DNA of 64,000 bases from Dehalococcoidia bacterium (GTDB lineage: Bacteria; Chloroflexota; Dehalococcoidia; UBA6926). The notes under the pieces were generated by a model. That model ran no database searches and was not told the origin of the DNA. It saw only the letters and a program-made list of their open reading frames with translations. Below are positions 1,358 through 25,049 of the stretch, piece by piece. The DNA is taken from assembly GCA_034422835.1 (NCBI GenBank), contig DAOUJJ010000013.1, positions 12,618 through 76,617 of the forward strand, in the 5' to 3' direction. The position numbers were made by a program, and so were the translations under genes. Position 1 is the first letter of the stretch; the number at the start of each line of letters is the position of its first letter.

Positions 1358-1430
1358 ACACATATAGCGGCTACCATCGGATTCCTGCGTACCCCTACAA
1401 CGAACTCAGGCCAAACCTAGGAGCCAAGCC

Positions 1431-9612: not shown

Positions 9613-9935
9613 CCCCCACGGTGTTCGTCCGTTCAGGCAGGAGCGGGGTCGACACGCAGAATGGCCTCCGTCGCCACCCGCCGCCCGTATGTGTGCGGCT
9701 TAAAGTTCAAGCGCGATGGCACATCTGCATGTGCTGAATCCGGGCCGCCCCCGGTACTGCTTGGGTTTACCCCCCCAATTTGAGATTCGTCGCAGTGTAC
9801 AGGAAATCGGCGCAATGAGTAAACTCCCGGTTAAAGTCGCACTATTTTACGTCAACACGTAATATCTGTTGCAGCCGCCAACCGCGTGGGCACGCGATAC
9901 GAGATATCCCCCGACCTGATGCCGTAAGCTGAAGC

Positions 9936-10559
9936 ATGAGCACAAGAATGAAACTGAACAGTGATGGAGTGGAGTTTCCCGCCACTCCGGTCAGCGTCTA
10001 TGAGGCAATCTATCGCCGGCGGCACGTGAAAGAGTTCACATCCGACGCCGTTCCCCGCGAGACACTGGAGCGCCTCTTCTCCGCGGCTGTCTGGGCGCCC
10101 AATCACCGCCTGACTGAGCCAACACGGTTCTTCGCAGTCCAGAAAGACAGCGAGATGAGGTCCAGGATTGCCGATGTTGCGTGGCAATCGGCATATGACG
10201 GCGTGAGCAACCCCAACCCTGAACAGAAACAGCGCTCGGCAGATGATCTACGGGACAGGGTAATGACCGCTCCCGCCATGGTGTACGTCTACAGCGTTAA
10301 GGGACTGATCGAGGAGATCACCCTCGAAAACTACGCCGCATCCTGCATTGCCGTCCATAACATGGCCCTCGCCGCCGTTGCCGAAGGGCTCAGCCTTGGA
10401 TGGAGCACGGGACGCCTCACCAAGCTCCCGGGCCTGGCCGACATCCTGGGCGCGAACGAAGACTGGATGATGGTGGGTGTCGTATTCATCGGCAAGGCCG
10501 CTGAAGAACCCGCCACGCAGCGCACGCCGCACTCAGAACTGGTCACGTGGCTTGAGTGA
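9936..10559 (+). CDS. Nitroreductase family protein
   Basis: Nitroreductase-fold motifs (RRHVKEF…, NHRLTEPTRFF). Confidence 0.6.
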   Translation: MSTRMKLNSDGVEFPATPVSVYEAIYRRRHVKEFTSDAVPRETLERLFSAAVWAPNHRLTEPTRFFAVQKDSEMRSRIADVAWQSAYDGVSNPNPEQKQRSADDLRDRVMTAPAMVYVYSVKGLIEEITLENYAASCIAVHNMALAAVAEGLSLGWSTGRLTKLPGLADILGANEDWMMVGVVFIGKAAEEPATQRTPHSELVTWLE

Positions 10560-10633
10560 CCCTTAGACAGGCCCCGTTGACTTTCATTCCCGTGGCTGGC
10601 ACGGTCTATCTTGAGATTCTTGAACCGGAGTGA

Positions 10634-11119
10634 ATGGGAATGGTCGATAAGTCGACAAGGCCCTCCCGCAGGGCAACAAGGCTTGCGAAAGAGTCCGCCT
10701 TGAAACCCGCCGCCAACGGAATCGTCTACCTCTCCGGTGGCAACCCCCAGATCGCCAAGGGCGACGGCGACGGCCCTGTGCAGGCCTACATTGCCGCCAT
10801 GCCGGAGTGGAAGAGCGATGTTGGCCGACGCCTCGATGAACTCATCGTCCGTGCCGTGCCCAACGTTCGCAAGGCCGTCCGATGGAACTCCCCCTTCTAC
10901 GGCACGGAGGAGCACGGCTGGTTCGTCAGCTACCACGTCTTTGCCAAGTACATCAAGGTGACGTTCCTGAACGGCGTCTCGCTCGATCCCATGCCTCCCG
11001 CCGGCGGCAAGGACCCGGACGCCCGCTGGATTGACCTCTACGAAGGCGACTTTGACGAAGCTCAACTCACCGACTGGTTCCGCCAATCCGCCGCCCTCCC
11101 CGCCTGGAAAGGTTTTTAG
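10634..11119 (+). CDS. DUF1801 (YdhG-like) domain protein
   Basis: Sequence pattern typical of DUF1801. Stop abuts a repeat cluster. Confidence 0.5.
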   Translation: MGMVDKSTRPSRRATRLAKESALKPAANGIVYLSGGNPQIAKGDGDGPVQAYIAAMPEWKSDVGRRLDELIVRAVPNVRKAVRWNSPFYGTEEHGWFVSYHVFAKYIKVTFLNGVSLDPMPPAGGKDPDARWIDLYEGDFDEAQLTDWFRQSAALPAWKGF

Positions 11120-11120
11120 A

Positions 11121-11184
11121 CCGCTCATCCTGAGCCTGTCGAAAGGCCGCTCACCTGTCATTCCGGCGAAGGCCGGAATCCACC
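11121..11184. repeat. Palindromic repeat cluster (family 1 CTGAGCCTGTCGAAAGGC + family 2 GTCATTCCGGCGAAGGCCGGAATCC)
   Basis: Matches six other loci in the window. Hairpin-forming. Confidence 0.8.
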
Positions 11185-11292
11185 GCATGACGCGCAGCGT
11201 CACAGCATACCCCCGTGACACCCCCCGCCAACGTGCCCTACAATCTAATTCCCGTACTGACTCACCCAACCACTGAGAGGATTACCAAAACC

Positions 11293-11685
11293 ATGAACCA
11301 AGTGGACTTCTACCGACACAAGCTCGCCTACGAGACGGACTCGGCAGACCTCTTCGAGTCCCTCCAGAACGATGAACCGATCGTCGTAGTAGACGGCCGC
11401 GCCCACTTCGCGTATGGAGAGGAGCACATCCCCGGCGCGATAAACCTGCCTCACCGGGAGATCAACGCCGAGTCCACCGCATCCTTGGACAAGTCGAGGA
11501 CATACGTCTGCTACTGCGACGGTATCGGTTGCAACGCCTCCACCAAGACGGCACTAAAGCTGGCTGAATTGGGGTTCGAGGTACGTGAGCTCATCGGCGG
11601 CCTGGTCTGGTGGCGGCGCGACGGCTACGCCACCCACGGCACCGGCGCCACCGCAGACGACCCCAACATCCGCTGCGCCTGCTGA
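11293..11685 (+). CDS. Rhodanese-like single-domain sulfurtransferase
   Basis: Active-site loop CYCDGIGCN. The track ORF starts earlier (11215) but that N-terminus is repeat-encoded; the start is taken at MNQVDFY. Confidence 0.6.
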   Translation: MNQVDFYRHKLAYETDSADLFESLQNDEPIVVVDGRAHFAYGEEHIPGAINLPHREINAESTASLDKSRTYVCYCDGIGCNASTKTALKLAELGFEVRELIGGLVWWRRDGYATHGTGATADDPNIRCAC

Positions 11686-11693
11686 CTCCCCCC

Positions 11694-12371
11694 CTAAACC
11701 CTCACCTGCTCCACCTCACCACCCAGCACCACGTCTAGCACCTCCAGGATGGCCAGGGTCGGCACGCGGTCCCCGATGTCCAGGCCGACGTATCCCCACA
11801 CCACCCCGCCGTCCGGGAGGATGACGAACGTCGCAGGAGCGGCCACGCCGTCCCCCAGCAGGTTGAATACGCCGTAGCTCGTCGACACGTCCTCGTTCGT
11901 GTCCGCTAAAACGGGGAATTCCGCCCCGGCCAGCACCTCCATCCGCTCCGCATCGACCAGTAAGTCAGTGCTGATCGCCGCCAGACCGACGTTTCGGCTC
12001 TCAAACTCAACGTAGAAGCTCTGCAACTCGACCAGTTGCTGCTGGCAGATGCCTCAACCGTAACTACGGTAGAAGACAATCACGAGCGCCTCTCGCCCCG
12101 CGAGCAGATCATCCAGTGTGTACCGCTCGCCCGTCCCCGTTGGCAGTGAGAAATCCGGTGCTTGCGGCGCCTCAGGCTCAGGAGTCTCCGTTGGAACCGC
12201 GGTGGCCGTGGGCAAAGGCGTGTCCGTGGCAGACGGCGTTGGGGTGAACGAGGGTTCAGGAGTGGGAGCGGCTGTTGGCGTTTCCCCTGAGCAGCCGGCG
12301 ATGATGACGGCAATTGTCGCTAAAATGGCAACAAATAGCGTTGGCGGATGTCCCGGAAAAAATTTCCTCAC
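11694..12371 (-). CDS. Candidate selenoprotein: TlpA/ResA-like thiol:disulfide oxidoreductase lipoprotein with UxxC motif (in-frame TGA at 12054-12056)
   Basis: Track ORFs 12054..12371 and 11694..12026 are in the same frame, separated only by TGA. Read-through gives …VIVFYRSYG-U-GICQQQLVEL…, which aligns to the WCAPC redox motif of the TlpA paralogue at 39905..40603. Lipobox IIAGCS plus T/P-rich linker. SECIS-like hairpin 15-31 nt downstream. Confidence 0.6.
12023..12044 (-). ncRNA. SECIS-like stem-loop downstream of the in-frame UGA
   Basis: mRNA reads …UGA GGCAUCUGCCAG CAACU-GGUCG-AGUUG CAGAGC. A 5-6 bp stem with GGUCG apical loop (GU in loop) begins ~15 nt after the UGA. Confidence 0.35.
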
Positions 12372-12430
12372 ACGTCAATTGTACGGACTGCTCGTTCCCG
12401 GGGTGGTAAATCGCGGGCGTGCACTGCCCC

Positions 12431-12466
12431 CAAAAACCGTAGAGGCGCGTTCCACAACGCGCCCCT
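12431..12466 (-). terminator. Rho-independent terminator downstream of rplT
   Basis: Minus strand: AGGGGCGCGTT-gtgg-AACGCGCCTCT followed by ACGGTTTTTG. Confidence 0.6.
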
Positions 12467-12491
12467 TGCGAACCGGTGTCAAATGAGTGGC

Positions 12492-12866
12492 TTACGCCGC
12501 AGCCTTCTCCGCCGCCAGCGCCTCTTTAGCTGCCTCCGCGATGCGGGCAAAGGCCTGCGGGTCGCGAACGGCCAGATCGGCCAGCATCTTGCGGTCGACG
12601 GCCACGTTCGCCAGCTTGAGGCCGTGGATCAGGTTCCCGTACGTAATGTCGTTCTGCCGGGCCGCGGCGTTGATCCGCGTAATCCACAGTCGCCGAAAGT
12701 CGCCCTTGCGCTCACGCCTGTGCTCGTAGGCGTACTGCCAGGAGTGCAGCAGGGACTCTTGCGCCCGGCGAAACAGCTTGTGCCGGGAGCCCCATTGCCC
12801 CTTCATCAGGTTGATGACTTCCTTGTGGCGGCGGCGCGTTCGCGGCCCGCCCTTGATTCGGGTCAT
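12492..12866 (-). CDS. rplT: 50S ribosomal protein L20
   Basis: Strongly conserved L20 sequence (MTRIKGGPRTRRRHKEV…). Confidence 0.95.
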   Translation of the reverse strand: MTRIKGGPRTRRRHKEVINLMKGQWGSRHKLFRRAQESLLHSWQYAYEHRRERKGDFRRLWITRINAAARQNDITYGNLIHGLKLANVAVDRKMLADLAVRDPQAFARIAEAAKEALAAEKAAA

Positions 12867-12908
12867 GTCAGTGATCCTCTCTACAGATACTGAAAACGAG
12901 AATGCGGC

Positions 12909-13115
12909 CTATGGGCCGTACGGCAGCAGCCGCTGCACGCGACGCCGATCCGCCGGACTCAGCGGCATCTCGTCGCCATACAGGCGCTTGACGTCCTTCG
13001 GCTTGCGGCGACGCAGGTGACTCTGATGCCCCTTGCGCTTTGTCAGCTTGCCGGAGCCGGTCATGCCGATCCGTTTCTGAGTGCCCTTGTGCGTCTTGAG
13101 CTTGTACTTTGCCAT
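12909..13115 (-). CDS. rpmI: 50S ribosomal protein L35
   Basis: MAKYKLKTHKGTQKRI…; classical infC-rpmI-rplT order. Confidence 0.95.
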   Translation of the reverse strand: MAKYKLKTHKGTQKRIGMTGSGKLTKRKGHQSHLRRRKPKDVKRLYGDEMPLSPADRRRVQRLLPYGP

Positions 13116-13158
13116 GGTGATTCCTGTCCCCGCGCCTCTAACCGGTCTAATTCGTCTG

Positions 13159-13761
13159 TTAGTCGGGTGATCCCGCAGCCGCAGCCGCCTCCTCGACCTT
13201 TTCCTCGGCCGCCGGAGTCTCAGTTGTCTGCTTTGGCGATGCGGCGTTCTTGCGCTTCAGAGGGGCCAGGATCATGCTCATGCCCCGTCCCTCCAATTGC
13301 GGCGCCGTGTCGATGCCCGCTATGTCCTCCACTTGCTCTGATACCTTCTTGAGCAGATTGATCGCCAACTCGGGGTGCGTCGCCTCCCGGCCTCTGAAGA
13401 TGACCGAGACCTTGACCTTGTCCCCACCCTCAATCAGCTTGCGTACCGTCCTCGTCTTGAAGTCGATATCATGCTGACCGATCTTGGGGCGGAGCCGCAC
13501 CTCGCCGAGTTCCTGCGTGTGCTGTCCCTTGCGGAGCTCCCGCTCCTTCTTGGACTGCTCGTAGCGATACCGACCGTAATCGAGGATACGGCACACAGGG
13601 GGCTGGGCGCCCGGGGCAACCTCAACCAGGTCAAGGCCCCGATCCTGCGCCAGCTGAATGGCGTCTGCCGTTTGCATCACTCCAACTCGCTCACCGTCGT
13701 CGGCCACCACAAGGACTTCCGGCACGGTTATGCGTTGGTTGACGCGGTAATCTCTCGGTAT
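13159..13761 (-). CDS. infC: Translation initiation factor IF-3; probable non-canonical ATA start (track ORF begins at GTG 13725)
   Basis: IF3 sequence. In-frame upstream extension …I-P-R-D-Y-R-V-N-Q-R-I-T-VPEV matches the conserved IF3 N-terminus. ATA lies 5 nt downstream of SD GAGGGAG. infC genes classically use AUU/AUA. Confidence 0.8.
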   Translation of the reverse strand: MPRDYRVNQRITVPEVLVVADDGERVGVMQTADAIQLAQDRGLDLVEVAPGAQPPVCRILDYGRYRYEQSKKERELRKGQHTQELGEVRLRPKIGQHDIDFKTRTVRKLIEGGDKVKVSVIFRGREATHPELAINLLKKVSEQVEDIAGIDTAPQLEGRGMSMILAPLKRKNAASPKQTTETPAAEEKVEEAAAAAGSPD

Positions 13762-13873
13762 GTCTACTCCCTCGCTGTGTAGCTATCAGCCGTATTGCTC
13801 AAGCACGTACTCTACAATCCGCCTATTTACCCCGTCAAGAATGACTAAACCGCCAATCCCTCCATCCCTTCCG

Positions 13874-13903
13874 TTCGCCCTGAGCCTGTCGAAGGGCCGC
13901 GCC
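13874..13903. repeat. Palindromic repeat, family 1 (CCCTGAGCCTGTCGAAGGGCCGCGCCC)
   Basis: Abuts the stop codon of the fused CaiB gene. Confidence 0.8.
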
Positions 13904-16315
13904 CTACCTCAGCACCCCGCTCTCCGTGCCCTCCTTAATCTCCTCCTCGGACAGCCCAAGTACTGAACTGTACACATACTCATTATCCTCGCCGATCCAT
14001 GGCGCGCGGTTGGCCGCGGTTGCCTTGGACAGCGAGGGAATCGCCGGCAGCCCGTGGTGCGAGAGCGTTCCCCATGTCGAGTGCGTCGATTGCACGATGT
14101 GTCCACGTTCTCGCAAATGCGGATCGTGGTACAGGTCCTCGCTGTTCATCGCCACGCCCGCCGGCACCCCGACCTTCTGCAGCATGTTAAGAAGCTGGTG
14201 CGAGGTGAACGCCTGCGCCCACTCACTTATCTCATGGTCGATTTCGTCCCGATTCGCCCGACGGCCCGCTGCATCTGCGAATCGGGGATCGTCCGCCCAG
14301 TGCGGCGCTCCCATCGCCTGTGCCAGCGCGCGCCATTGCTCGTCCGTCTCGCACGCGATGACGATCCACGTGTCCGGGTACAGGCACGCATACGCCCCGT
14401 ACGGCGCGTAGTGGGCATTTATCGGCTCGTTATAGCCGACGCTGCCCCAGATGTTCCCGTTAATCGTGTAGTCCAGGATGGCCGGACCCATCATCGAGCC
14501 CTGGCCGTCCACCTGCGCGATTTCGATGAACTGCCCGCGGCCCGTCACGTCGCGGTACTCCAGCGCAGCGGCGGTGGAGAGCGCCACAAATGCGGCGCCC
14601 ACGTAGTCCGGTATCACGCCCTTCGCATGGTTCTGCATCGGCGAGTCCGGGTGCCCCCACAGCAAGGACAGTCCCGTCACCGCCTGCAGGTTGTTCCCGT
14701 ACGTCACCCAGTTGTTCAGTGGCCCCTCGGAACCCATCCCCGGCATACCGATCTGGATGACCCCCGGGTTGATCTTCGTCAGGTCGTCGTAGCCAAGACC
14801 GAGCCGCTTCATGACCGTCGCGCTGAAGTTATCGACGACAACATCGCTGTCCTTGACCAGTTGGCGGAAAAGGTCCTTGCCGCCATCGGAACGCAAATCG
14901 AGGGTGCAGCTCAGCTTATTGCGGTTCATATCGGGGAACAGCGGGCGCGTCGGCTCACGGTTGGCCTCAAGGCTTTCGGACTCCACCTTGATGACCTCCG
15001 CGCCATAGAAGCCGAGGAACATCGTCCCGATCGGTCCCGCGAATGCCCGCGTGATGTCTGCCACGCGAATGCCGTCCAACAGCGCGTCGTCGGGCGCTTT
15101 GCCGTTCGTCGGCGCAGGGTACGTGTCACGCCGCGGCGCAACCGAATCAATCTCGGCCAGCACCTCATCGCGATGCTGGTCCAGCAGCGGGGCAGGGCGC
15201 GTCTGGTTCCACGGCGTGGCTGACATGATGAACGGCTGTCCCGGCGTTTCATACTCGCCCACGACAGGATGCGTCACCTTCTGGAACCAGCCCCGCGACC
15301 GCATATGGTCGTCCGTTACAAAATCCTCGAACGTGTTGACGGGACAGCAGGCCAGCCCCAGCCGCTGCGCTTCCTCCACGAACTCATCGCGGTCGAACTG
15401 CTCAACGAACGACTGTATGAGGATCTGCGCCAGGTCCTCATTGTCCGTCCGGTACTGGGACGAGTCCCAGTCATCGCCGGACAGCACCGCGTCCTCCATC
15501 CACTGTCGGGACAGAACGCGCCAATGCCCGGTCATGAAGATCGCGATCTGGACGTACTTGTCATCCTTCGTCCGATAGATATTCGCGGGGCCGCCGCGCG
15601 GCCCCTGGCGCAACACGATCTCGCTCCGCTGGCTGTAGCGCGCAATCGTCCCGACCGTCGCGAACGTCAGCGCCTCTTGCAATGAGAGGTCGATGCGCTG
15701 GCCGAGCCCTGTCGCCCGCCGATGCCGTACGGCGTTGATCGCCAGGTACGCGCCATGAACTGCCGCAAGCTGCGCCCCGATCTGGCACGGCAGCACGACG
15801 GGCGCGCGCTCGTCGTCGCCCTGGCTCATCATCACGCCGGACATGGCCGAAATCACCGCCTCATTCGCTGTGAACGCGCTGTGCGGTCCCGTCTGCCCGA
15901 ACGGCGTGAGCGAAACCGTCACAAGGCCGGAGTTCAACTCCTCAAGACGCGCATCATCAATACCAAGTGAGGCCAACTGCCCCGGGGGAGTGCATTCGAC
16001 AAAGATATCCGCCCGCTCGATGAGCTTCTCAAGGGTCTCCCGGCCGCCGGAGTCCTCAACGTCAAGAACGATGCTGCGACGATTCAGATTGGCGTTGAGA
16101 AAAGGAATGCTGCGCTCGACATCCGCGATGTCGCCCGCGAACGGCGCGTGCATCCGATTCGGATCGCCCCCCGGCGGCTCCACCTTGATAACGTCCGCGC
16201 CGAGCCCGGCAAGGTACCCCGCGCAATACGCCGCGGGAATCTCCCCAATCTCAACAACCCGCAAATGCCCAAGCGCCGTATCCGCCCCACCATTAGTCAT
16301 AGCCACACTCCCCAC
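13904..16315 (-). CDS. Tandem-fused CoA-transferase family III protein (two CaiB/BaiF domains in one 803-aa chain)
   Basis: Two repeats of the CaiB signature (…VVEIGE…AGYLAGLGADVIKVE…; …IRVADIT…GFYGAEVIKVE…). Confidence 0.8.
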   Translation of the reverse strand: MGSVAMTNGGADTALGHLRVVEIGEIPAAYCAGYLAGLGADVIKVEPPGGDPNRMHAPFAGDIADVERSIPFLNANLNRRSIVLDVEDSGGRETLEKLIERADIFVECTPPGQLASLGIDDARLEELNSGLVTVSLTPFGQTGPHSAFTANEAVISAMSGVMMSQGDDERAPVVLPCQIGAQLAAVHGAYLAINAVRHRRATGLGQRIDLSLQEALTFATVGTIARYSQRSEIVLRQGPRGGPANIYRTKDDKYVQIAIFMTGHWRVLSRQWMEDAVLSGDDWDSSQYRTDNEDLAQILIQSFVEQFDRDEFVEEAQRLGLACCPVNTFEDFVTDDHMRSRGWFQKVTHPVVGEYETPGQPFIMSATPWNQTRPAPLLDQHRDEVLAEIDSVAPRRDTYPAPTNGKAPDDALLDGIRVADITRAFAGPIGTMFLGFYGAEVIKVESESLEANREPTRPLFPDMNRNKLSCTLDLRSDGGKDLFRQLVKDSDVVVDNFSATVMKRLGLGYDDLTKINPGVIQIGMPGMGSEGPLNNWVTYGNNLQAVTGLSLLWGHPDSPMQNHAKGVIPDYVGAAFVALSTAAALEYRDVTGRGQFIEIAQVDGQGSMMGPAILDYTINGNIWGSVGYNEPINAHYAPYGAYACLYPDTWIVIACETDEQWRALAQAMGAPHWADDPRFADAAGRRANRDEIDHEISEWAQAFTSHQLLNMLQKVGVPAGVAMNSEDLYHDPHLRERGHIVQSTHSTWGTLSHHGLPAIPSLSKATAANRAPWIGEDNEYVYSSVLGLSEEEIKEGTESGVLR

Positions 16316-16330
16316 CGATTAGGCGCATTC

Positions 16331-16457
16331 GTCATTCTCGTGCTTGACACGGGAATCCAGAACACCCTCCCCCAATCTGCGAGTACGATAGGCGTCACAC
16401 GTTGGCGGGTCAAGGATGAGACACCCCCCATTCACCCTGAGCCTGTCGAAGGGCCCC
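16331..16457. repeat. Palindromic repeat cluster (family 3 GTCATTCTCGTGCTTGACACGGGAATCCAGAAC; family 1 TTCACCCTGAGCCTGTCGAAGGGCCCC)
   Basis: Lies between the CaiB fusion and vapB. Confidence 0.8.
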
Positions 16458-16531
16458 ATTGCCCAACCATTCCCCCGTCGTTATAGTCCAAAGGGTAGAC
16501 ACCAAACGAACCGTCTACCCTGAGGTACCCA

Positions 16532-16825
16532 ATGAGCCTGAACATCAAGAACGAAGAGACCTGCCGACTCGCCGAAGAACTCGCCACGCTGACCAAGGAG
16601 AACAAGACGCAGGCAATCACCATCGCCCTGCGTGAGCGCCTCAAGCGGGAACGGGAGCGGCTTACGGAATTTGACCGATCCCTGGAAGGTTGGCTTCGCT
16701 GGAAAGAGGAACGACGCAAGAAGACTGCCGACATGCACCGCCGGCTTGCGCCGCATCTGCGCCCCACCTCATCCTCACAGGAGCTTCTCGACTCTCTCTA
16801 TGGCGAGCACGGCGAACCGAAGTGA
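16532..16825 (+). CDS. vapB: Type II antitoxin VapB (COG4423-like)
   Basis: MSLNIKNEETCRLAEELATLTKENKTQAITIALRERL… Stop overlaps the GTG of the downstream PIN gene. Confidence 0.7.
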   Translation: MSLNIKNEETCRLAEELATLTKENKTQAITIALRERLKRERERLTEFDRSLEGWLRWKEERRKKTADMHRRLAPHLRPTSSSQELLDSLYGEHGEPK

Positions 16826-17208
16826 TCGTCGATTCATCTGCAGTCTGCGCCATCCTGCTGAGAGAGACTGATGGCCCCTATTTTGAAGAAGCGCTATTCC
16901 GTGTGGACGGTCTCCGTATGTCTGCGTTCAATGTTCTTGAATCCGCCATCGTGTTGGAAAGTCGGCTGGGCCCGGCAGGCGGCACAGAATTCGATGCATT
17001 CCTTCAGCGCGAATCCATCGAAATCGTCCCGGTGACGCCTGAACAGGTCACCGTTGCCCGCCGCGCTTGGCGAGAATTCGGCAAAGGCAACCACCCCGCC
17101 GCCCTCAACCTCGGCGACTGCCTCGCCTACGCCCTCTCCCAAATGACCCGCGAACCCCTCCTCTACAAAGGCGCAGACTTCGAGCAGACGGACGTACGCC
17201 CCGCCTAA
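16822..17208 (+). CDS. vapC: PIN-domain toxin VapC
   Basis: VIVDSSAV… with conserved acidic residues of the PIN fold. GTGA overlap with vapB. The track ORF 16690..17208 extends upstream only because no stop intervenes. Confidence 0.7.
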   Translation: MIVDSSAVCAILLRETDGPYFEEALFRVDGLRMSAFNVLESAIVLESRLGPAGGTEFDAFLQRESIEIVPVTPEQVTVARRAWREFGKGNHPAALNLGDCLAYALSQMTREPLLYKGADFEQTDVRPA

Positions 17209-17356
17209 CCGCTCACCCTGAGCTTGTCGAAGGGCTCCGCCCGTCATTCCCACGAAAGCGGGAATCCAGAACTCCCTTCCCCGGTGGGGGGGGAGAGTCA
17301 GGGTGAGGGGTAAGCGCCCCACCCATGTCATTCCGAGCGCAGCCGAGGAATCTAAA
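17209..17356. repeat. Palindromic repeat cluster (family 1, family 2 GTCATTCCCACGAAAGCGGGAATCCAGAAC, family 4 GTCATTCCGAGCGCAGCCGAGGAATCTAAA)
   Basis: Starts directly after the vapC stop. A GGGGGG…CCCC palindrome lies between the units. Confidence 0.8.
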
Positions 17357-17419
17357 TTGTCCACCAGCAAATCAACTGCAGGAGCGGCTCATTTGTAACT
17401 CCAATAATTCCAACGAGCT

Positions 17420-19138
17420 TTACTCTTCGCCGCTACAGAGCTTGATTGCCTCCCTATGGATTGCTTCGGCGCGAGCGTGTATGAATGATTCATAGTCGGA
17501 TTTGATCTTCGCACCCCGTGCCTCTTCATCAGCTATTTCTGAATACCCCCCAACGCTTAGACTGTCGAACGGTATGATGTGTGTTTCTAATCGGCTACGA
17601 ATTTGATCCTCACCAAGAGGTGCACGTTCGGCACGCTCCCGCAGATAGGCCAACGGCTCTTTGGCGGAAATTCTCCGGTTGGTGTTCCATGTGATTAGGG
17701 CACAATTCAGAGCGAGACTGATATCGCCCTCATCGATCAAACCCACATTGTCAAGTAGGGCTTCCGGGAATAGATGATGGTATTCCCTTCTAGCAAGCGA
17801 ATCAGGAGTGGCTGGCGAGTCATCGGCAAAATCTCTGCCTCCAGCTCGTATAGAGACAGCCAGTATCGCCCGAGCCAAGGTACTGCGGAGTCGTGGCCAT
17901 GGAGCCCGTTCCAGTTCCTCAATCTCGGCAATCGGGAATCTGTCGTTGTCCAGTATCGGAATCAAGGCATCAGATTCTCCATCTACAAGCCTGGCCTTTA
18001 GACCACGATGATCTTGGAGTGCAGCAGTAGCGGCCGCGCGGTCGTATCTGTCTGTAAAGAAGGAGCGCCACAAGTATTGACGCAATAGCAAACGCGCTTC
18101 GCCGTGAGCATCTAGGGATTGTGGCATCTGACTCCAGATTGAGGCGATTATCGGCACCACAGCTACCGTAGGCAGACGATCACGGTCGTAAATGTGTTCC
18201 TCACTCAGAAACCTGATCGCGCCCCCGACACCTCTTTCAATCGATTCCCATTCTCTGGAAAGCCGCCGCATGTCCAACTGTAAAAAGGAGGCTTCCGTGG
18301 GGGGCCGGTTTTCTCTGAGAGCAGCAACTCGGAGAACAAGATCCGAGATATTGACATATCGCTCGGCCTCTGGAACGGCTGAACGCAGAGACCCTTCAAG
18401 TTCGTGTAGGGATTGTCCTGTTGCCGCCTCCATTTGGGCTACGACAATATCAAATGCAGATAGGCGGACAGAAGTTGTATTCATCTTGATGAACACATCA
18501 ATTGCTTCTCCAGGAGGCGTGCCCACTGGCAATTCTAGGTAGGGTAGATTCGCCTCCCTAAGGGCGTTTCGGTGTATTGCCAATTCTCGTTCTAGGGAGC
18601 GACTTTCTTCGACAGAACCCGTAGCTAGGTCGCACCAAGTGCCAATTTCGGTAGAATCAACTGCCGGACTAAGAATACGTATTGGTACTAGTCCTCGTCT
18701 CCGCTGTTCCTGAGGCTGATCGGCCCACAGAGGGTACCTCTGGCCCCCTCTGTGCCACCTGCCATAACTTCTAACTAACGATGGATCGTCCGCATCAGGA
18801 CGTAGCACAGCGAAATAGGTTCGATTCGCGTAACCGTCGTTGAGTGCCTTCCATATCGCTGTCAATCGTTGTTGGCCGTCCAGCAGGTTCTCAGTTGTGC
18901 GTTCTGTTTGGGGAGGAGCCCCCGCTATAGTGCGGCTTATAAACGGCTGTTTATCTCCTATAGCAAGTACCAGGGCGGCACCGATTGGCCGACCACGCAG
19001 GATGGTGTCTAGGAGTGTTTCGACATCGCCATGTCCCCAACTTTCCAGCCTTTGAAACCTTGGGAGCGTTAGTTGTCCAGTTCGAACGCGCCCTAGCCAG
19101 TCGGGAAGTCGCCGATTTCTAGCTTCCATTGACATTGT
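17420..19138 (-). CDS. GmrSD-family type IV (modification-dependent) restriction endonuclease, DUF262 + DUF1524
   Basis: DUF262 motif DGQQRLTA. C-terminal His-Me/HNH-like DUF1524 motifs (EYHHLFP…HIIP). Start taken at MSMEARNRR, preceded on the mRNA by GGAAGC with ~6-nt spacing; it overlaps the thrS 3' end by ~20 nt. A/T-richer than the flanks. Confidence 0.75.
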   Translation of the reverse strand, partial: TMSMEARNRRLPDWLGRVRTGQLTLPRFQRLESWGHGDVETLLDTILRGRPIGAALVLAIGDKQPFISRTIAGAPPQTERTTENLLDGQQRLTAIWKALNDGYANRTYFAVLRPDADDPSLVRSYGRWHRGGQRYPLWADQPQEQRRRGLVPIRILSPAVDSTEIGTWCDLATGSVEESRSLERELAIHRNALREANLPYLELPVGTPPGEAIDVFIKMNTTSVRLSAFDIVVAQMEAATGQSLHELEGSLRSAVPEAERYVNISDLVLRVAALRENRPPTEASFLQLDMRRLSREWESIERGVGGAIRFLSEEHIYDRDRLPTVAVVPIIASIWSQMPQSLDAHGEARLLLRQYLWRSFFTDRYDRAAATAALQDHRGLKARLVDGESDALIPILDNDRFPIAEIEELERAPWPRLRSTLARAILAVSIRAGGRDFADDSPATPDSLARREYHHLFPEALLDNVGLIDEGDISLALNCALITWNTNRRISAKEPLAYLRERAERAPLGEDQIRSRLETHIIPFDSLSVGGYSEIADEEARGAKIKSDYESFIHARAEAIHREAIKLCSGEE

Positions 19139-20921
19139 CTGACCCCCTCCCCGCCATCTCCTCCAGCACCCGCTCCATGAACTCCCCAACGGGCATCGCG
19201 CCCAGATTCTCGCTGTTCTCACGGCGACGCACAGCCACCGCACCCGACTCCGCCTCGCGGTCGCCAACGACCAGCATGTAGGGCACGTGCCTGGTCTGCG
19301 CCTCACGGATCTTCGCGTTCATACGCTCATTGCGGTCATCAATCTCAACGCGCAGCCCGACGGCGTGCAGCTGCTCCTGCACCTGCTGCGCGTAAGGGAT
19401 ATGCCGGTCTGCAATAGGGATAAGCGTCGCCTGCACCGGCGCGAGCCACACCGGGAACGCCCCCGCGTTGTGCTCCAACAGCACACCCAAAAACCGCTCC
19501 AGCGAGCCGAGGATCGCGCGATGGATCAGCACTGGCCGCTCGCGCGTGTTGTCCTCCGTCACGTATTCAAGGTCGAACCGCTCCGGCAGATTGAAGTCCA
19601 GCTGGAACGTGCTCAACTGCCACTCCCGCCGCAGCGCGTCCTGCGAGAACAGGTCGATTTTCGGCCCGTAGAACGCGCCCTCATTGGGTATCTCCTCAAA
19701 GTCGACGTCGGCAAGCGTTAGCGCCTCGCGAAGCGCCTGCTCAGCCTGATCCCAGACCTCATCGCTCCCCACGCGTTTCTCCGGTCGCAGCGACAGCGTA
19801 TAACGCGGCTCGTTCAGACCGAATGCCTGGTACACGTCCCGCATCATGCGGATCAGCGACGAGAATTCGTCCTGTATTTGGTCGAGTCGGCAGAAGATGT
19901 GGGCGTCGTCCTGCGAGAAGCTCCGTACGCGCGTCAACCCGTGTGTGACGCCGGAGCGTTCATTGCGATGCAGCCGCCCAAAGTCCGCCATACGCAACGG
20001 CAGCGCGCGGTATGAGTGCAGCTGGGATTGGTACACGATGCAGTGGCCGGGGCAGTTCATCGGCTTGACCCCGTACTCGATCTCATCCGACTGCGTCAGG
20101 TACATATTCTCCAGGTAGTTGTCGTAATGCCCCGACTGTTTCCAGAGGTCCGTCAAGAATATCTGCGGCGTGATGACCTCTTGGTAGCCGTACTTGTCGT
20201 ACAACTCCCGGATGAAATCGACCATCAGGTTGTAGACCGTCGCGCCCTTTGGCAGGAAGAACGGGCTGGCTGGCGCGATCGGGTCGAAGAAGAACAGGTC
20301 AAGCTCGCGCCCTAGCCGGCGGTGGTCCCGCCGCTCCGCCTCCGCCAACCGCTCCAGGTGCGCGTCAAGCTCCTCTTGTGTTTCGAACAGCGCCCCGTAG
20401 ATGCGCTGCAGCTGCGGATTGCTCTCATCGCCGCGCCAATACGCTCCGGCCACCCGCGTCAGCGTGAACGCCCCCGTCTTGTCCGTCGACTCCGCGTGCG
20501 GCCCCTGGCACAGATCCGTGAACTCGCGATGACTGTAGATGGAAACCGTGTCGTCCGTCAGGCTCTCGATGATCTCCACCTTGAAAGGCTGATCCGCGAA
20601 CCGCGCAAGTCCCTCGTCGCGCGGCATCTCACTCGCGACGAACGGCGCAGCAGACTTGGCGCTCTCCCGCATCCGCGCCTCGATCTCCGGCAGATCGTCC
20701 GTGGATAGCGTGCGCGGCAGCAGGAAGTCGTAGTAGAAACCGTCCTCGATGGGCGGCCCGATGCCCAGCTTCGCCTCGGGGAACATGGACAGCACGGCCT
20801 CCGCCATCATGTGCGCCGCGGAATGCCGCATCCGGATGAGCGTGTCGTTCTCGCCTGCGTAGCGCTCCTCAAGCGCGCTTCCGTCCGCGAGTGATTCTGC
20901 TTCGTGTTCCTGGTGTGACAT
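19119..20921 (-). CDS. thrS: Threonyl-tRNA synthetase
   Basis: ThrRS editing and class II catalytic motifs (HRHSAAHM…, FRLHRNERSG…). Confidence 0.9.
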   Translation of the reverse strand: MSHQEHEAESLADGSALEERYAGENDTLIRMRHSAAHMMAEAVLSMFPEAKLGIGPPIEDGFYYDFLLPRTLSTDDLPEIEARMRESAKSAAPFVASEMPRDEGLARFADQPFKVEIIESLTDDTVSIYSHREFTDLCQGPHAESTDKTGAFTLTRVAGAYWRGDESNPQLQRIYGALFETQEELDAHLERLAEAERRDHRRLGRELDLFFFDPIAPASPFFLPKGATVYNLMVDFIRELYDKYGYQEVITPQIFLTDLWKQSGHYDNYLENMYLTQSDEIEYGVKPMNCPGHCIVYQSQLHSYRALPLRMADFGRLHRNERSGVTHGLTRVRSFSQDDAHIFCRLDQIQDEFSSLIRMMRDVYQAFGLNEPRYTLSLRPEKRVGSDEVWDQAEQALREALTLADVDFEEIPNEGAFYGPKIDLFSQDALRREWQLSTFQLDFNLPERFDLEYVTEDNTRERPVLIHRAILGSLERFLGVLLEHNAGAFPVWLAPVQATLIPIADRHIPYAQQVQEQLHAVGLRVEIDDRNERMNAKIREAQTRHVPYMLVVGDREAESGAVAVRRRENSENLGAMPVGEFMERVLEEMAGRGSDNVNGS

Positions 20922-21012
20922 GCGACTTCATATCTCCTTGAGCTACTCCTATCTATAATGACGGTTGACGCGCCAAGCGTGAAAGAGGCGATTCGAGAAA
21001 GGCAGGGCCGAG

Positions 21013-21249
21013 ATGGACAAGTTAGGCTCTATGACAACGGACTGGTCACAGTGCCCGCAGGTGGAGCGGGTTCAAGGCAGGTACAGTGGTGCGTTGACGT
21101 TCCGCAACTCGCGAATGCCTGTGGAAAGCCTTATTTCAAACCTCGCTAGCGGGGCCACCGTGGAGCAATGGGCAGAGTGGTACGGGGGTGATCTTGACAT
21201 GGCCCGCGCCATTCTGGAGTTCCTTGCGGAAGATATGAGCCAGGCATGA
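21013..21249 (+). CDS. DUF433 domain protein (antitoxin-like), orphan
   Basis: DUF433 pattern (…QGRYSGALTFRNSRMPVESLISNLASGATVEQWAEWY…). Stop overlaps the start of the M42 peptidase (ATGA). Confidence 0.55.
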   Translation: MDKLGSMTTDWSQCPQVERVQGRYSGALTFRNSRMPVESLISNLASGATVEQWAEWYGGDLDMARAILEFLAEDMSQA

Positions 21250-22358
21250 CAACTGATCAGACAACCTACTCCCGCCAACGCCAACTCCTTGCGGAGCTGT
21301 CCAACGCCTTCGGGCCGACGGGCTACGAGGCCCCCGTCCGCGCCATCATGCGCCGCGAACTTGAGCCATTGACCGACGCGCTCGAAACCGACGGCATCGG
21401 TTCCCTCATCGCGCGCATCGGTGACGAAGCCGATGATGTGCCGCGCGTCATGCTCGCCGCCCACATGGATGAAGTCGGCCTCATGGTGCGCCAGATCACT
21501 GCGGAGGGTTTCCTCACCATCCAGACCCTCGGCGGCTGGCTGGATCAGGCCTTAATAAACCAGCGGTGGGTCGTCATGACCCGCAACGGCCCCATCCCCG
21601 GCCTCACCGGCATCAAGACTCCCCATGTTATGCAGCCGGACGCCCGAAACCAGGTCTTCAAGAAAGAAAGCATATTCATTGACGTGGGCGCCAGGGACAA
21701 GGAGGACGCCGAGCAGCGTCTCGCCATCCGCCCCGGCGACCCCGTCGCGCCCGACAGCCGCTTCCAGGAGATGGCCGGCGGCGAGCTCTACATCGGCAAG
21801 GCGTGGGACGACAGGGCAGGGGTAGCCGGACTCATTGAGATTGCACGCGCCCTGCGTGAATCCACAGAGCCACTCCCCGCCACCGTCTACCTCGTCGCCA
21901 CCGTCCAGGAAGAAGTCGGCCTGCGCGGCGCGCACACAAGCAGCTTTCACGTCATGCCGGACATCGGCATCAACCTTGAATCCGGCGTCGCGGGCGACTA
22001 CCCCGGCATCACCAAAGACGAGGCACAGGAAGAACTTGGCAAAGGCCCGACGGTCTTCCTCCATGACAGCTCCATGATCCCCAACCTCCGTCTCCGCGAT
22101 TTCTTTGTCGATGCAGCCGCCGAACTCGAGATACCGCTGCAATTCAACGTCCTCAGTGGCTACGGACAGGACGGCGCGGAGATGCAGAAAGCCGGGTCCG
22201 GCGCCCCCTCCATCAACATCGCCGTCCCCACCCGATACCTTCACAGCCACAACAGCGTCATCCACCGCGACGATTTCTCCAACGCCGTCCGCCTGGTCAC
22301 AGAAGTCGTCCGCCGCCTCACCCCCGAAACCGTCTCAGCCCTAACCACCTTCGACTAG
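21246..22358 (+). CDS. M42 family metallo-aminopeptidase (FrvX/TET-like)
   Basis: AHMDEVG, KAWDDRAG and EEVGLRGA motifs. Confidence 0.8.
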   Translation: MTTDQTTYSRQRQLLAELSNAFGPTGYEAPVRAIMRRELEPLTDALETDGIGSLIARIGDEADDVPRVMLAAHMDEVGLMVRQITAEGFLTIQTLGGWLDQALINQRWVVMTRNGPIPGLTGIKTPHVMQPDARNQVFKKESIFIDVGARDKEDAEQRLAIRPGDPVAPDSRFQEMAGGELYIGKAWDDRAGVAGLIEIARALRESTEPLPATVYLVATVQEEVGLRGAHTSSFHVMPDIGINLESGVAGDYPGITKDEAQEELGKGPTVFLHDSSMIPNLRLRDFFVDAAAELEIPLQFNVLSGYGQDGAEMQKAGSGAPSINIAVPTRYLHSHNSVIHRDDFSNAVRLVTEVVRRLTPETVSALTTFD

Positions 22359-22366
22359 CCCCCCCC

Positions 22367-22514
22367 CGCTCACCCTGAGCCTGTCGAAGGGCACCCTCCG
22401 TCATTCCCGCCCCTCTCCCGTCATTCCCGCGCAGGCGGGAATCTGAATCGTATTGTGCAGCCCAACCCCGTAACGCCATTCCTGTCATTCTGAGCGCAGC
22501 CGAGGAATCTAAAG
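22367..22514. repeat. Palindromic repeat cluster (family 1, family 2 GTCATTCCCGCGCAGGCGGGAATC, family 4 GTCATTCTGAGCGCAGCCGAGGAATCTAAAG)
   Basis: Directly downstream of the M42 peptidase stop. Confidence 0.8.
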
Positions 22515-22656
22515 ACTCCGGTTCGCCAGGCAACTCTTGTTATTCGAGGGTTGCGCGTCCGCACGGACTCTCTACACTGGTGCCCATGAGAGCCTTGCCC
22601 AACCTCTTCGACGTGATGGCCATATACGCCCTGTATCAGGGCAGGTGACGGATACG

Positions 22657-23190
22657 ATGTGGATAAGAAGAGTTGCTTTGCTGGGCGCAACCCTGCTGGC
22701 GTTGTCCTTCTTCTCGCTTCTCGCAGCCTGTGATGACGGAGATATATCCACACCTACTGTGATACCTACCCCGGAACCAACCCTGCCTTATAACCTTGAG
22801 GCCGAAAGGTCGCAGCTTGCCCACTCCAAGCACGCTTGGGAGCGCGACGGCCCGTACGACTATACCTTTGAGGCTGAGGCTTCGTGCAATTGTCCAGCAC
22901 CAAGAACGCCCTTCAGGATAACGGTCAGAGTGGGAGCCATTGAGTCAATGACGAATCTCAACACCGGCGAAGTGGTAACCGATGTACCCTGGCCCTTTCA
23001 GACTATCCACGAATTGTTTGATGAAATTGGATACTATTTGCATCGTGATCCGCCAGCCGCGTATATTTCCGTAGCATACCATCCTCGGTTGCGTTATCCC
23101 GTGTACATTGGTGTAGACCGCTCAGCGGACATGATTGATGATGAATATCGTTTGGTAATTACCTCGTTCAAGCCATTAGACCGTTCTTAG
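22657..23190 (+). CDS. Hypothetical lipoprotein
   Basis: Signal peptide plus lipobox LLAAC. The track ORF starts at 22537 but the upstream part overlaps a repeat. Confidence 0.45.
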   Translation: MWIRRVALLGATLLALSFFSLLAACDDGDISTPTVIPTPEPTLPYNLEAERSQLAHSKHAWERDGPYDYTFEAEASCNCPAPRTPFRITVRVGAIESMTNLNTGEVVTDVPWPFQTIHELFDEIGYYLHRDPPAAYISVAYHPRLRYPVYIGVDRSADMIDDEYRLVITSFKPLDRS

Positions 23191-23351
23191 GCCACAACGG
23201 CGCCGATACCGTGATTGATCTGCTTCCCGTGGCCCCAACGGTGGTAGGGACACCCCGCAGGCAAGGCAGGCAAGCGCGTCGCGGGCGCAGCCTTTATGAT
23301 GAAACCAAACTTGGCTACTGGAGTTTGACAGTGCCTCTTATTCCCAAAGTG

Positions 23352-24800
23352 ATGAGCACCCAGCACCCGGACAACGCTGCGGCGCCCGCCTATGCCGTTG
23401 ACGGAGTCATCAAGGGCGACGGCGAAATCATCGAAGCCGTCGACGCCTTCGGACTCGGCTGCGATGAGCAGATGTGGGACTCGGAAGGCAAGGACACTGA
23501 TACCCACGTCGTCCAGAAACTGCTGAGCAACTACTCCGACTTCTTCCGCGAGGAGCGCCGGTTGGGACGCGACACCGTCATCACCCTGCGCGTCCCCAAC
23601 CCCGCCATCGAGGTTGAGATGCGGAAACTGATGGTGGAGGCGCTGCAGAGCATCCCCACCGCCTTCGACGTGGCCCGTGAGTTCTATGGCGGTGACCCGG
23701 AGCCGCCCATACAGGAGATCATTCTTCCCTTCACCTCGTCCGCCAACGAACTCTCTCGCATTGTGGCGTACTACGAGAACTTCATCGTCGGACAGGAATC
23801 ACGCGCTCTCCTGGATGACGTATCCGTTCGTGATTGGATAGGCGAATTCCTCCCGAAGCGCATTCGCGTTATCCCGCTCGTGGAGGAGCGCGATCAGATG
23901 CTCCACGTCGATGACATCGTCCGGGAGTACCTGCAGGAGCGGGAGGAACCCTACCAGCGTGTCTTCCTGGCCCGCAGCGACCCTGCCCTGAACTACGGTA
24001 TGGTCGGCGCGGAAATCCTGCTCAAGGCCGCTCTCTACCGCGTTGACCGGCTCGCGCAGGAGACCGGCATTCCGATGTACCCAATCATTGGCGCCGGCTC
24101 CGTGCCGTTCCGTGGACACTTGAAACCCACCAACACGGCGCGGGCCTTCCGTGAATACCCCAGCGTCCACACGCTCACCGTGCAGTCTGCATTCAAATTT
24201 GACTACCCCCGGGATGACGTGACGTCGGGCATCGCCGAAATCCAGGCCCACGAGCAAACGCCCGCGCACCCTATTGATGAAGAACGCGCCATCGCCATCC
24301 TCGATAAGGCCGCTGCGGAATACCAAAGGCAGGTGAGGAACCTTGCCCCCACAATCGCCGCAGTCTCCGCCCTCTCACCGCGGAGGCGAGAGCGCAAACT
24401 GCACGTGGGACTATTCGGCTACGGCCGCTCGCTCTCCGGCTCAGACGACGTGACGCTGCCCCGCGCTATCGCCTTTACCACCGCCCTCTATTCGATAGGC
24501 GTTCCGCCGGAATTGCTCGGACTCGCCGCCCTTGACCAGGACGATTTCGCCTACCTGCGAGAGATATACCCGAGCTTTACGGAAGACCTCGCCACGGCGC
24601 TCCGCTACGCGAACGAGACACGCGTCAACCAACTGCTCGGCGACAACTATCGACGACTGCTGGTGCGCTTCACGGAAGAGATCGACCGCATTCACGAGGG
24701 ACTCACCACGGCGGTCTGGGCGAGCCTTGAGCAAGGCGCCACAGGGCGCGTGTCGCAATACATCGCGGAAGCGGGAGAACTCCGGCACTTCCTGGGCTGA
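23352..24800 (+). CDS. Archaeal-type phosphoenolpyruvate carboxylase
   Basis: N-terminus MSTQHPDNA is the hallmark of atPEPC; ~480 aa. The track ORF starts at 23211. Confidence 0.7.
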   Translation: MSTQHPDNAAAPAYAVDGVIKGDGEIIEAVDAFGLGCDEQMWDSEGKDTDTHVVQKLLSNYSDFFREERRLGRDTVITLRVPNPAIEVEMRKLMVEALQSIPTAFDVAREFYGGDPEPPIQEIILPFTSSANELSRIVAYYENFIVGQESRALLDDVSVRDWIGEFLPKRIRVIPLVEERDQMLHVDDIVREYLQEREEPYQRVFLARSDPALNYGMVGAEILLKAALYRVDRLAQETGIPMYPIIGAGSVPFRGHLKPTNTARAFREYPSVHTLTVQSAFKFDYPRDDVTSGIAEIQAHEQTPAHPIDEERAIAILDKAAAEYQRQVRNLAPTIAAVSALSPRRRERKLHVGLFGYGRSLSGSDDVTLPRAIAFTTALYSIGVPPELLGLAALDQDDFAYLREIYPSFTEDLATALRYANETRVNQLLGDNYRRLLVRFTEEIDRIHEGLTTAVWASLEQGATGRVSQYIAEAGELRHFLG

Positions 24801-25049
24801 ACCCGAACCGCAACCCAACCCGTATTGACAGGAAGGGGAATCGGGCGCATAGTTGAATCCGTTATCGGGGTCGGTATCGGCATGTGACCGCCCCGGTTGG
24901 TTGGAGACAATTCCCTATGACAAGAGACGTGGCAGCGCGTTTTGCATTGCATATGGATGCGCGCGAGCGCGTCGAGTGATCGTTGGGGAATGAAGCAGGC
25001 GTGAATCGCCCCCCGAGATTTTCCGGCGGGGCAGGCCATTTGAGGTTGC

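Follow-up and report, generated by a model that had tools for sequence, protein, structure and literature searches.

A probable defence-gene hotspot between thrS and infC in a Dehalococcoidia bacterium, with a GmrSD-like gene overlapping the end of thrS

We analysed a 64-kb stretch of DNA from a Dehalococcoidia bacterium (contig DAOUJJ010000013.1; hereafter the window), in which the genes for threonyl-tRNA synthetase (thrS) and initiation factor 3 (infC) are separated by 5.4 kb. The window matches a 192.8-kb metagenomic scaffold (ENA ERZ23495130, NGUY21-1 scaffold_222), and its nearest relatives are metagenome-assembled genomes (MAGs) that carry the label Dehalococcoidia or Chloroflexota. The minus strand has, in this order, thrS, a GmrSD-like gene referred to here as DUF262-A, a double CoA-transferase gene (CaiB2) and infC-rpmI-rplT, with a vapBC pair on the plus strand between DUF262-A and CaiB2. 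An earlier note, made from the sequence alone, had placed a GmrSD-like gene, vapBC and a double CaiB gene between thrS and infC, and this was confirmed by Pfam. The GC content is 0.52-0.54 across DUF262-A compared to 0.60-0.65 in the flanks, with an abrupt change at the thrS/DUF262-A junction. We consider it probable that an old linkage of thrS and infC has here come to house a chromosomal hotspot for defence genes, and that a deletion specific to this genome fused a resident defence gene to thrS. The genes and the junction are as follows, with lengths in amino acids (aa) or nucleotides (nt).

19119-20921, minus strand: thrS, threonyl-tRNA synthetase (ThrRS), 600 aa; TIGR00418 at 711 bits, Pfam tRNA_SAD, tRNA-synt_2b and HGTP_anticodon.
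19143-19152, minus strand: GGGGAGGGGG, encoding the G-R-G end of ThrRS and Shine-Dalgarno-like (SD-like) for DUF262-A; from the sequence.
19119-19142, minus strand: thrS/DUF262-A junction; DNA alignments.
19119-19135, minus strand: overlap of the thrS 3' end and DUF262-A, 17 nt, with DUF262-A in the +1 frame relative to thrS; sequence, independent gene call and an identical Logan contig.
17420-19135, minus strand: DUF262-A, GmrSD-like (BrxU-like) putative type IV restriction enzyme, 571 aa; Pfam GmrSD_N, profile, fold and motifs.
16822-17208, plus strand: vapC, PIN-domain toxin, 128 aa, GTG start; Pfam PIN (PF01850) and gene call.
16532-16825, plus strand: vapB, Rv0623-like antitoxin, 97 aa; Pfam PSK_trans_fac (PF07704) at 64 bits.
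13904-16315, minus strand: CaiB2, double family-III CoA-transferase, 803 aa; two Pfam CoA_transf_3 stretches, NCBIfam, PDB and synteny.
13159-13761, minus strand: infC (initiation factor 3, IF3), 200 aa from ATA 13761; TIGR00168 at 204 bits.
12909-13115, minus strand: rpmI; Pfam L35p.
12492-12866, minus strand: rplT; Pfam L20.

A scan with ThrRS, taking one genome per species, gave 80 loci (numbered with the prefix L), of which 77 had room downstream of thrS. In 51 of the 77, infC follows within 400 nt on the same strand; the remaining 26 have a larger gap (6 loci), no infC within the flank (18) or infC elsewhere or divergent (2). The earlier claim that thrS and infC are normally adjacent therefore holds: adjacency is the majority state, although interruption is not rare. 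Dehalococcoidia and Chloroflexota MAGs with direct adjacency include L032, L034, L035, L046, L058 and L064, and it is absent from the Anaerolineae, Ktedonobacteria, Thermoflexus and Roseiflexus loci. Since adjacency is common, the linkage in the window is an interrupted one. The open reading frames (ORFs) in four other gapped loci (L021, L027, L059 and L075) were unrelated or unidentifiable when inspected by eye, without a scan of family libraries, and include histidine-kinase-like and RRM-like proteins. So far there is no sign of a general defence hotspot at the thrS-infC junction outside the clade of the window.

We identified six loci with ThrRS at least 86% identical to that of the window, representing five distinct configurations, which read as follows from thrS onwards.

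L126 (GCA_026713485.1), ThrRS 92.6% identical: 132-nt spacer, DUF262-A (75% aa identity), vapC, vapB, CaiB2 and infC; DUF262-A and vapC are 9 nt apart.
L121, ThrRS 86% identical over residues 1-491 (the assembly has a frameshift in the gene): 354-nt spacer, DUF262-A (78%), two retropepsin-like genes and vapCB; the contig ends before CaiB2.
L082, ThrRS 86% identical: retropepsin-like gene, DUF262-A (77%), retropepsin-like gene, then CaiB2 and infC.
L002 and L085, ThrRS 92% identical: 100-nt gap, a 630-aa protein of another DUF262 family (DUF262-B, 24% identity to DUF262-A) and vapCB (59-69% aa identity).
L003, ThrRS 94% identical: a 571-aa canonical GmrSD on the opposite strand and a 68-aa ORF; no vapBC.

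The variation among these relatives is limited to the space between thrS and CaiB2. At every relative locus whose contig reaches CaiB2, this protein is 82-96% identical and infC-rpmI-rplT comes directly after it. In the synteny comparison, which the earlier note had proposed, thrS directly precedes infC in most loci, and the close relatives share CaiB2 and vary only in the slot. Since the order thrS/DUF262/vapCB/double CaiB/infC is shared with L126, it predates the genome of the window. The proteins occupying the slot have low GC content at third codon positions (GC3), namely 0.47 for DUF262-A, 0.56 for DUF262-B and 0.52 for the canonical GmrSD, compared to 0.80-0.83 for CaiB2 and thrS. The L003 slot protein matches both Pfam GmrSD_N and GmrSD_C (64.9 bits) and the PADLOC model HEC-06 (1.6e-82).

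DUF262-A of the window has about 70-72% nucleotide identity to the other slot copies, compared to 78-85% in the flanks, and this faster divergence may reflect fast evolution or allele exchange, both of which are usual for defence genes. A neighbour-joining tree was built from 70 members of the family; in it the four DUF262-A copies from the slot cluster together (the window with L082, and L121 with L126), and the next branch is P0028, which lies in an unrelated context. The tree fits a history in which DUF262-A has long occupied the slot and was displaced later in the lineages of L002 and L003. Other homologues with 70-77% identity are found in the defence islands of L122 and L123, together with a CBASS-like SMODS/patatin pair and helicase and methyltransferase genes, next to transposase and integrase genes in L083, and in an unrelated metabolic neighbourhood in L084.

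Retropepsin-like (gag-asp_proteas) genes of 117-127 aa were also observed beside DUF262-A in L121 (6964-8291), L082 (7455-7838 and 9885-10238) and L127 (9754-10107). L121 has two copies, and behind each of them lies a duplicated fragment of the vapC 3' end (85-87% aa identity to residues 76-128), which suggests a small mobile or duplicating unit.

We found that DUF262-A begins inside the end of thrS. Its first ATG lies at 19135-19133 and a second at 19129, and the TAG stop of thrS is at 19121-19119. The overlap is 17 nt from the first ATG (11 nt from the second), comprising five sense codons and the stop. The overlap proposed in the earlier note is therefore real, although the start is ATG 19135 rather than 19138 and fewer than the roughly seven codons proposed are involved. 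ThrRS has 600 aa here and 593-594 aa in the relatives, in which it ends with GRG, so that the protein of the window is 6-7 aa longer. In L002 and L003 thrS ends with GGGGAGGGGG TGA and in L126 with GGTGAGGGGG TGA; in the window it ends with GGGGAGGGGG TCA GAC AAT GTC AAT GGA AGC TAG. The ancestral TGA stop of these three relatives reads TCA in the window; six new codons and a TAG come after it, so that ThrRS is extended at its C-terminus by SDNVNGS (seven codons). Similarity by blastn to L002, L003 and L126 ends at 19139 and restarts within DUF262-A at 19108 (L126) or 19130 (L121). From this break and restart it follows that the 132-354-nt spacer is missing from the window, as are the final two bases of the thrS stop codon, and because of their loss ThrRS gains SDNVNGS and the DUF262-A start falls inside thrS. 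According to the junction alignment the overlap is a secondary, genome-specific deletion and not a property of the inserted element, and it is found in only one of the five genomes carrying an orthologous DUF262-A.

The deletion has left DUF262-A with a ribosome-binding context of normal appearance. GGGGAGGGGG stands 7 nt upstream of the DUF262-A ATG, with its GGAGG core about 10 nt upstream of ATG 19135, and five homologues in other contexts have a G-rich SD 8-10 nt before their first ATG. In L082 the SD is GGGGAGGGA, before the same ATG-NNN-ATG, and microhomology between the thrS end and such a cassette SD is a plausible cause of the deletion. All twelve homologues that we inspected start with M-x-M-E-A-R-N-R or M-E-A-R-N-R, and A5, N7, R8 and W13 are invariant in an alignment of 24 family members. 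The codons of A5, N7 and R8 occupy 19123-19112, across and just past the thrS stop, with that of A5 at 19123-19121, and there is no in-frame start codon downstream of 19129 near the N-terminus. Since the codon of the invariant A5 already overlaps the thrS stop, a start that does not overlap thrS is not possible; such a downstream start had been named in the earlier note as the finding that would speak against the overlap. A frameshift fusion of ThrRS and DUF262 was rejected, as the frames differ by +1, no slippery site is evident and the homologues all start M-x-M.

DUF262-A has a GC content of 0.53 and matches Pfam GmrSD_N (PF03235) with 71.6 bits (cutoff 33.2) over residues 15-235. The motif DGQQR (D86, G87, Q88, Q89 and R90) is invariant in the 24 family members, as are LPRFQR, E451-x-H453-H454-L-F-P457, N477 and N486. 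A profile of the 24 sequences searched against PDB sequences found only BrxU (7P9K, 2.2e-9) below E = 0.01. The AlphaFold2 model (pLDDT 79.2, pTM 0.60) gave BrxU as the best Foldseek match in PDB (7p9k_A, E 5.4e-12, probability 1.00, 643 aligned columns, TM 0.42, full length), and the second-best match had E = 2. PADLOC matches to HEC-05 and PDC-M55C are weak and N-terminal, and no NCBIfam model was found for the protein. The GmrSD family is defined by a DUF262 domain with DGQQR and a DUF1524 domain with an HNH motif of the form (D/E)HIxP (PMC8565348; bioRxiv 10.1101/2024.01.29.577857). GmrSD_N, DGQQR and a BrxU-like fold speak for the designation of DUF262-A as a GmrSD-type restriction gene, but Pfam GmrSD_C was not detected. 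We have filed it as a GmrSD-like (BrxU-like) subfamily with a probable nuclease domain. By homology it would be a nucleoside triphosphate-dependent, modification-dependent DNA nuclease directed against phage with modified DNA.

The closest known systems are the BrxU/GmrSD type IV enzymes (PDB 7P9K; Picton et al. 2021, PMC8565348) and HEC-05 and HEC-06 of Payne et al. (bioRxiv 10.1101/2024.01.29.577857). DUF262-A shares with them a single polypeptide of about 570-590 aa, an N-terminal DUF262 with LPxxQR and the invariant DGQQR, an LLDS-like stretch matching the RLFDS motif of BrxU, and a long helical linker to a C-terminal region. In this region DUF262-A has the invariant E-x-H-H-L-F-P and Asn residues, which would fit a His-Me/HNH finger. 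Its homologues likewise occur in defence islands. It differs in being only about 16% identical to BrxU, in having HHLFP instead of the DHIYP or EHICP of the family, in matching HEC-05 weakly and at the N-terminus alone, and in being known here from its sequence and a model. The subfamily is large, with 1996 matches in a protein search, and DUF262-B of L002 belongs to the same broad subfamily: hhalign aligned the two over their full length (probability 99.5), with EYHHLFP opposite DIHHIFP. A close relationship to the canonical GmrSD of L003 was rejected, as hhalign gave a short, low-probability match although both proteins match Pfam GmrSD_N.

CaiB2 is a single ORF, of 803 aa from a GTG or 798 aa from ATG 16300, and it remains a single ORF in the relatives. 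Pfam CoA_transf_3 (PF02515) matches it with 592.9 bits and two complete domains in one chain, and its GC3 of 0.80 is host-like (thrS 0.83). Family III CoA-transferases work as interlocked dimers. The N-terminal half of CaiB2 has its best PDB match in 9fn0_A (BbsE, 3e-46) and the C-terminal half in 9fn0_B (BbsF, 3e-57), the two family III subunits of succinyl-CoA:(R)-benzylsuccinate CoA-transferase (BbsEF). Unlike BbsEF, CaiB2 has both subunits in one polypeptide, as if a heterodimeric family III enzyme had had its two subunits fused. All NCBIfam equivalog matches are far below their cutoffs, and PADLOC gave no match for CaiB2. Using CaiB2, a metagenome scan found one further close relative, L085, of the same type as L002, and homologues with 50-65% identity; on the short contigs that carry these, neither thrS nor infC is adjacent. 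Full-length fused homologues with about 30% identity are common in metagenomes (L090-L108).

The repeats and other non-coding features of the locus are the following.

17209-17419, no strand: repeat/hairpin cluster between the convergent DUF262-A and vapC; RNA fold z-score -2.0.
16459-16521, plus strand: promoter-like site and inverted repeat upstream of vapB; pattern matches only.
16316-16461: CaiB2/vapB intergenic region, with repeat units at 16350-16373 and 16428-16461 and a CaiB2 promoter-like site at 16413-16385 (minus strand).
13871-13904: dispersed repeat copy CCCTGAGCCTGTCGAAGGG directly after the CaiB2 stop.
13809-13838, minus strand: infC promoter-like site TTGACG-18-TAGAGT; consensus scan and alignment.
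12441-12466, minus strand: terminator-like hairpin after rplT, with an 11-bp stem containing 7 GC pairs and then a T-run; terminator scan.

All promoter-like sites come from a consensus scan that is crude, the number of matches in the region being equal to chance expectation. The vapBC pair lies opposite in strand to thrS and infC, its two genes overlap by 4 nt (GTGA at 16822-16825) and its GC3 is intermediate (0.67-0.72). No PADLOC match was found for vapBC, nor an NCBIfam model for vapB or vapC. Upstream of vapB, TTGCCC-17-TATAGT precedes a perfect inverted repeat of 9 nt, AGGGTAGAC-N12-GTCTACCCT, 10 nt before the ATG, and this site and palindrome are a candidate promoter and operator for vapBC.

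We found seven copies of CCCTGAGCYTGTCGAAGGG in the window (at 11128, 13878, 16435, 17216, 22373, 35519 and 46372) against about 0.03 expected, and five of GCGGGAATCCAGAAC (at 16349, 17258, 35770, 43285 and 46419) against about 0.19. Copies are also scattered at many places in related loci, and both sequences are dispersed short intergenic repeats, not element ends. The earlier note had each gene separated by repeat clusters; these are present at three junctions, but there is none between thrS and DUF262-A. The cluster at 17209-17419 is absent from L126, which indicates that such repeats come and go.

Two observations concern small genes near the locus. A HicA/HicB pair lies upstream of rho, about 8 kb from thrS (L001 1715-2262), and is further evidence suggesting that core genes of this genome often have small toxin-antitoxin modules between them. 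A DUF433-like small gene is found at 21013-21249 on the plus strand, between an M42 peptidase gene and thrS; at the corresponding position L121 has three tandem DUF433/DUF5615 pairs (1091-3210), and the far side of thrS may also be a variable site for toxin-antitoxin-like genes.

Downstream of the slot, infC has no ATG, GTG or TTG before 13725, and in-frame stops lie at 13791-13786. An in-frame ATA at 13761 stands 5 nt after the SD GAGGGAG (13773-13767), and when IF3 is read from this ATA its residue 5 aligns to position 5 of the TIGR00168 model. The ATA start proposed in the earlier note is thus well supported, given that no canonical start is available and that the ATA and SD are invariant in the close relatives L002, L003, L082 and L085. 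Seven Chloroflexota-type MAG loci that are more distant also have an ATA at this position (L017, L027, L032, L034, L035, L058 and L064), and the start is ATC in four other loci. It has been stated that infC uses AUU or AUC in all bacteria (PMC5499595). As in the E. coli thrS-infC-rpmI-rplT cluster (PMC5499595), infC-rpmI-rplT lies downstream of thrS in the same order and on the same strand, and infC has a non-canonical AUN start behind a strong SD. Unlike in E. coli, the start is AUA, 5.4 kb separate thrS and infC, and a promoter-like site lies directly upstream of infC in place of promoters inside thrS. An Rfam scan of 11500-22500 at E <= 1 found nothing, including no thrS, infC or L20 leader and no repeat family. 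The site TTGACG-18-TAGAGT is kept in four relatives, L002, L003 and L082 among them, with TTGACGG and GGCGGATTGTA.AGT invariant, and infC appears to have its own promoter. Because of this conserved site, infC is unlikely to be affected by no longer having thrS next to it upstream, and IF3 autoregulation through the non-canonical start would be expected to be unaffected. The hairpin at 12441-12466 probably marks the end of the infC-rpmI-rplT operon.

Based on these comparisons, we favour a course of events that would begin with the common bacterial state, which is seen in several Dehalococcoidia as well, of thrS followed within 30-250 nt by infC-rpmI-rplT. CaiB2 would then have come to lie between thrS and infC in the clade with ThrRS identity of at least 86%, where comparison shows it to be inherited like a core gene. 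The thrS-CaiB2 space would have become a variable slot, which is seen to hold DUF262-A in four genomes, mostly with vapBC, DUF262-B in one lineage and, in another, a canonical GmrSD that lies on the opposite strand and has no vapBC beside it, all three rich in AT at third codon positions relative to the host. The conserved flanks may have allowed turnover of the slot by homologous recombination, perhaps with help from the dispersed repeats. Finally, as the alignment shows, about 130-350 bp are gone from the window, and a deletion would have taken the final two bases of the thrS stop codon together with the spacer, including any promoter there, with GGGGAGGGGG from the thrS 3' end replacing the cassette's own similar SD. 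Co-transcription with thrS is likely because the spacer, with any promoter in it, is gone, and no promoter-like site was found in the thrS 3' region in the crude consensus scan. Most probably DUF262-A shares a transcript with thrS, and the 17-nt overlap couples its translation to that of thrS; transcription might alternatively start within thrS. The hotspot is not explained by an integrated mobile element, as we found no integrase or transposase in the gene list of the window and the repeats are dispersed, and tRNA-targeted integration was rejected after a search of 9000-25000 found no tRNA.

In a rival account, which takes up the 5.4-kb insertion of the earlier note, a single, recent mobile insertion would have brought in GmrSD, vapBC and the double CaiB gene together, with a design that couples restriction to thrS. 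The genes do sit between two that are adjacent in most bacteria, the DUF262 gene is foreign in composition and repeats occur at three junctions. However, the 5.4 kb are composite, because CaiB2 is clade-conserved and host-like, vapBC is intermediate in GC3 and only the DUF262 slot is foreign; it is the slot adjoining CaiB2 that varies. L126 has the same gene order with a 132-nt spacer, which makes the overlap secondary, and the repeats are dispersed genome-wide rather than being element ends. With no integrase, transposase or tRNA in addition, we regard a single insertion as very improbable. An artefact of assembly or binning at the junction, or a DUF262 start further downstream without overlap, seems to us extremely improbable. 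The window is a metagenome-assembled scaffold and its GC content shifts abruptly at the junction, but an independent Logan assembly of SRR13587050 yielded a 2129-nt contig (SRR13587050_95465) that is 100% identical across the junction, which argues against a scaffold-specific assembly error, and the flanks on both sides are syntenic with the relatives. The invariant N-terminal residues and the lack of a later start codon stand against a downstream start.

It may also be asked whether the overlap is adaptive, with selection having placed a type IV enzyme on the thrS transcript so that defence follows the state of translation (ThrRS autoregulation, growth rate or phage-induced shut-off). The overlap is real, DUF262-A is intact with all family-invariant residues, and a good SD-like sequence with normal spacing has been kept. 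Moreover, co-orientation is usual for defence genes that are embedded in other operons, and it may allow co-regulation (bioRxiv 10.1101/2024.01.29.577857). Yet the overlap occurs in one genome only, in the four other genomes with an orthologous gene a spacer or another gene still lies in between, and the junction destroys the thrS stop and adds seven arbitrary residues. Adaptation is rather unlikely on this evidence, and the overlap looks like an accident of the deletion, not design. A further proposal is unlikely in our view: that the thrS/infC junction of this clade is a dedicated exchange site for GmrSD-type enzymes, replaced like for like across three DUF262 families, and that through the fusion here an essential aminoacyl-tRNA synthetase controls both the transcription and the translation of a modification-dependent nuclease. 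If it were true, the output of defence would depend on how the translation machinery is faring.

Several points weigh against the hotspot and deletion that we favour. There are six close relatives, in five configurations, and all are MAGs. The direction of some slot events, replacement or independent gain, is taken from one neighbour-joining tree. The nearest outgroup, L004 (ThrRS 63%), has citrate synthase and other genes after thrS and no infC near it, and is of no help in polarising the events; ancestral adjacency is for this reason drawn from lineages further away, together with the order and orientation that the genes have kept. At the junction, a microhomology of 8-10 nt is weak evidence. 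Co-transcription and coupling are read solely from the overlap and the loss of the spacer, and a promoter inside the thrS 3' coding region may be present, the scan that found none being crude. As regards the enzyme, Pfam GmrSD_C/DUF1524 (PF07510) matched neither the whole of DUF262-A nor, at E <= 0.1, its C-terminal 226 aa, the nuclease motif is the variant HHLFP (E451-Y-H453-H454-L-F-P457) instead of D/E-H-I-x-P, and the AlphaFold2 model is weakest at residues 440-520 (pLDDT 45-70), where this motif lies.

The slot resembles known hypervariable restriction loci and defence hotspots, which likewise have conserved flanks, here thrS and CaiB2-infC. The 'immigration control region' of E. coli is such a hypervariable locus between core genes, with alternative hsd, mcrBC and mrr contents. 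The slot shares with these loci the non-orthologous restriction-type alternatives at one site, the atypical composition, a toxin-antitoxin module and the lack of a dedicated integrase. It differs in lying inside a translation-gene cluster of an uncultured Dehalococcoidia-like clade, in being small (1.7-3 kb) and in that all three alternatives, in the six relatives and five configurations sampled, are of DUF262 type, like for like. A literature search for a thrS/infC defence hotspot returned nothing relevant.

In conclusion, the locus is an ordinary defence hotspot with a lineage-specific gene fusion; all of its parts (the hotspot itself, a GmrSD-like enzyme, a vapBC module and a non-canonical IF3 start) are of known kinds and no new principle is involved. 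The AUA start of infC across Chloroflexota-type genomes is a minor extension of the known AUU/AUC rule. A large GmrSD-like subfamily with HHLFP and no Pfam GmrSD_C match has been defined, which is a candidate for type IV restriction. Overall, our analysis documents a small defence hotspot within one of the most conserved translation-gene linkages of bacteria, in an uncultured Dehalococcoidia-like lineage, and suggests that a short deletion can make an autonomous defence gene the passenger of a housekeeping gene. Current concepts are unchanged, and the locus provides a clean example of them.

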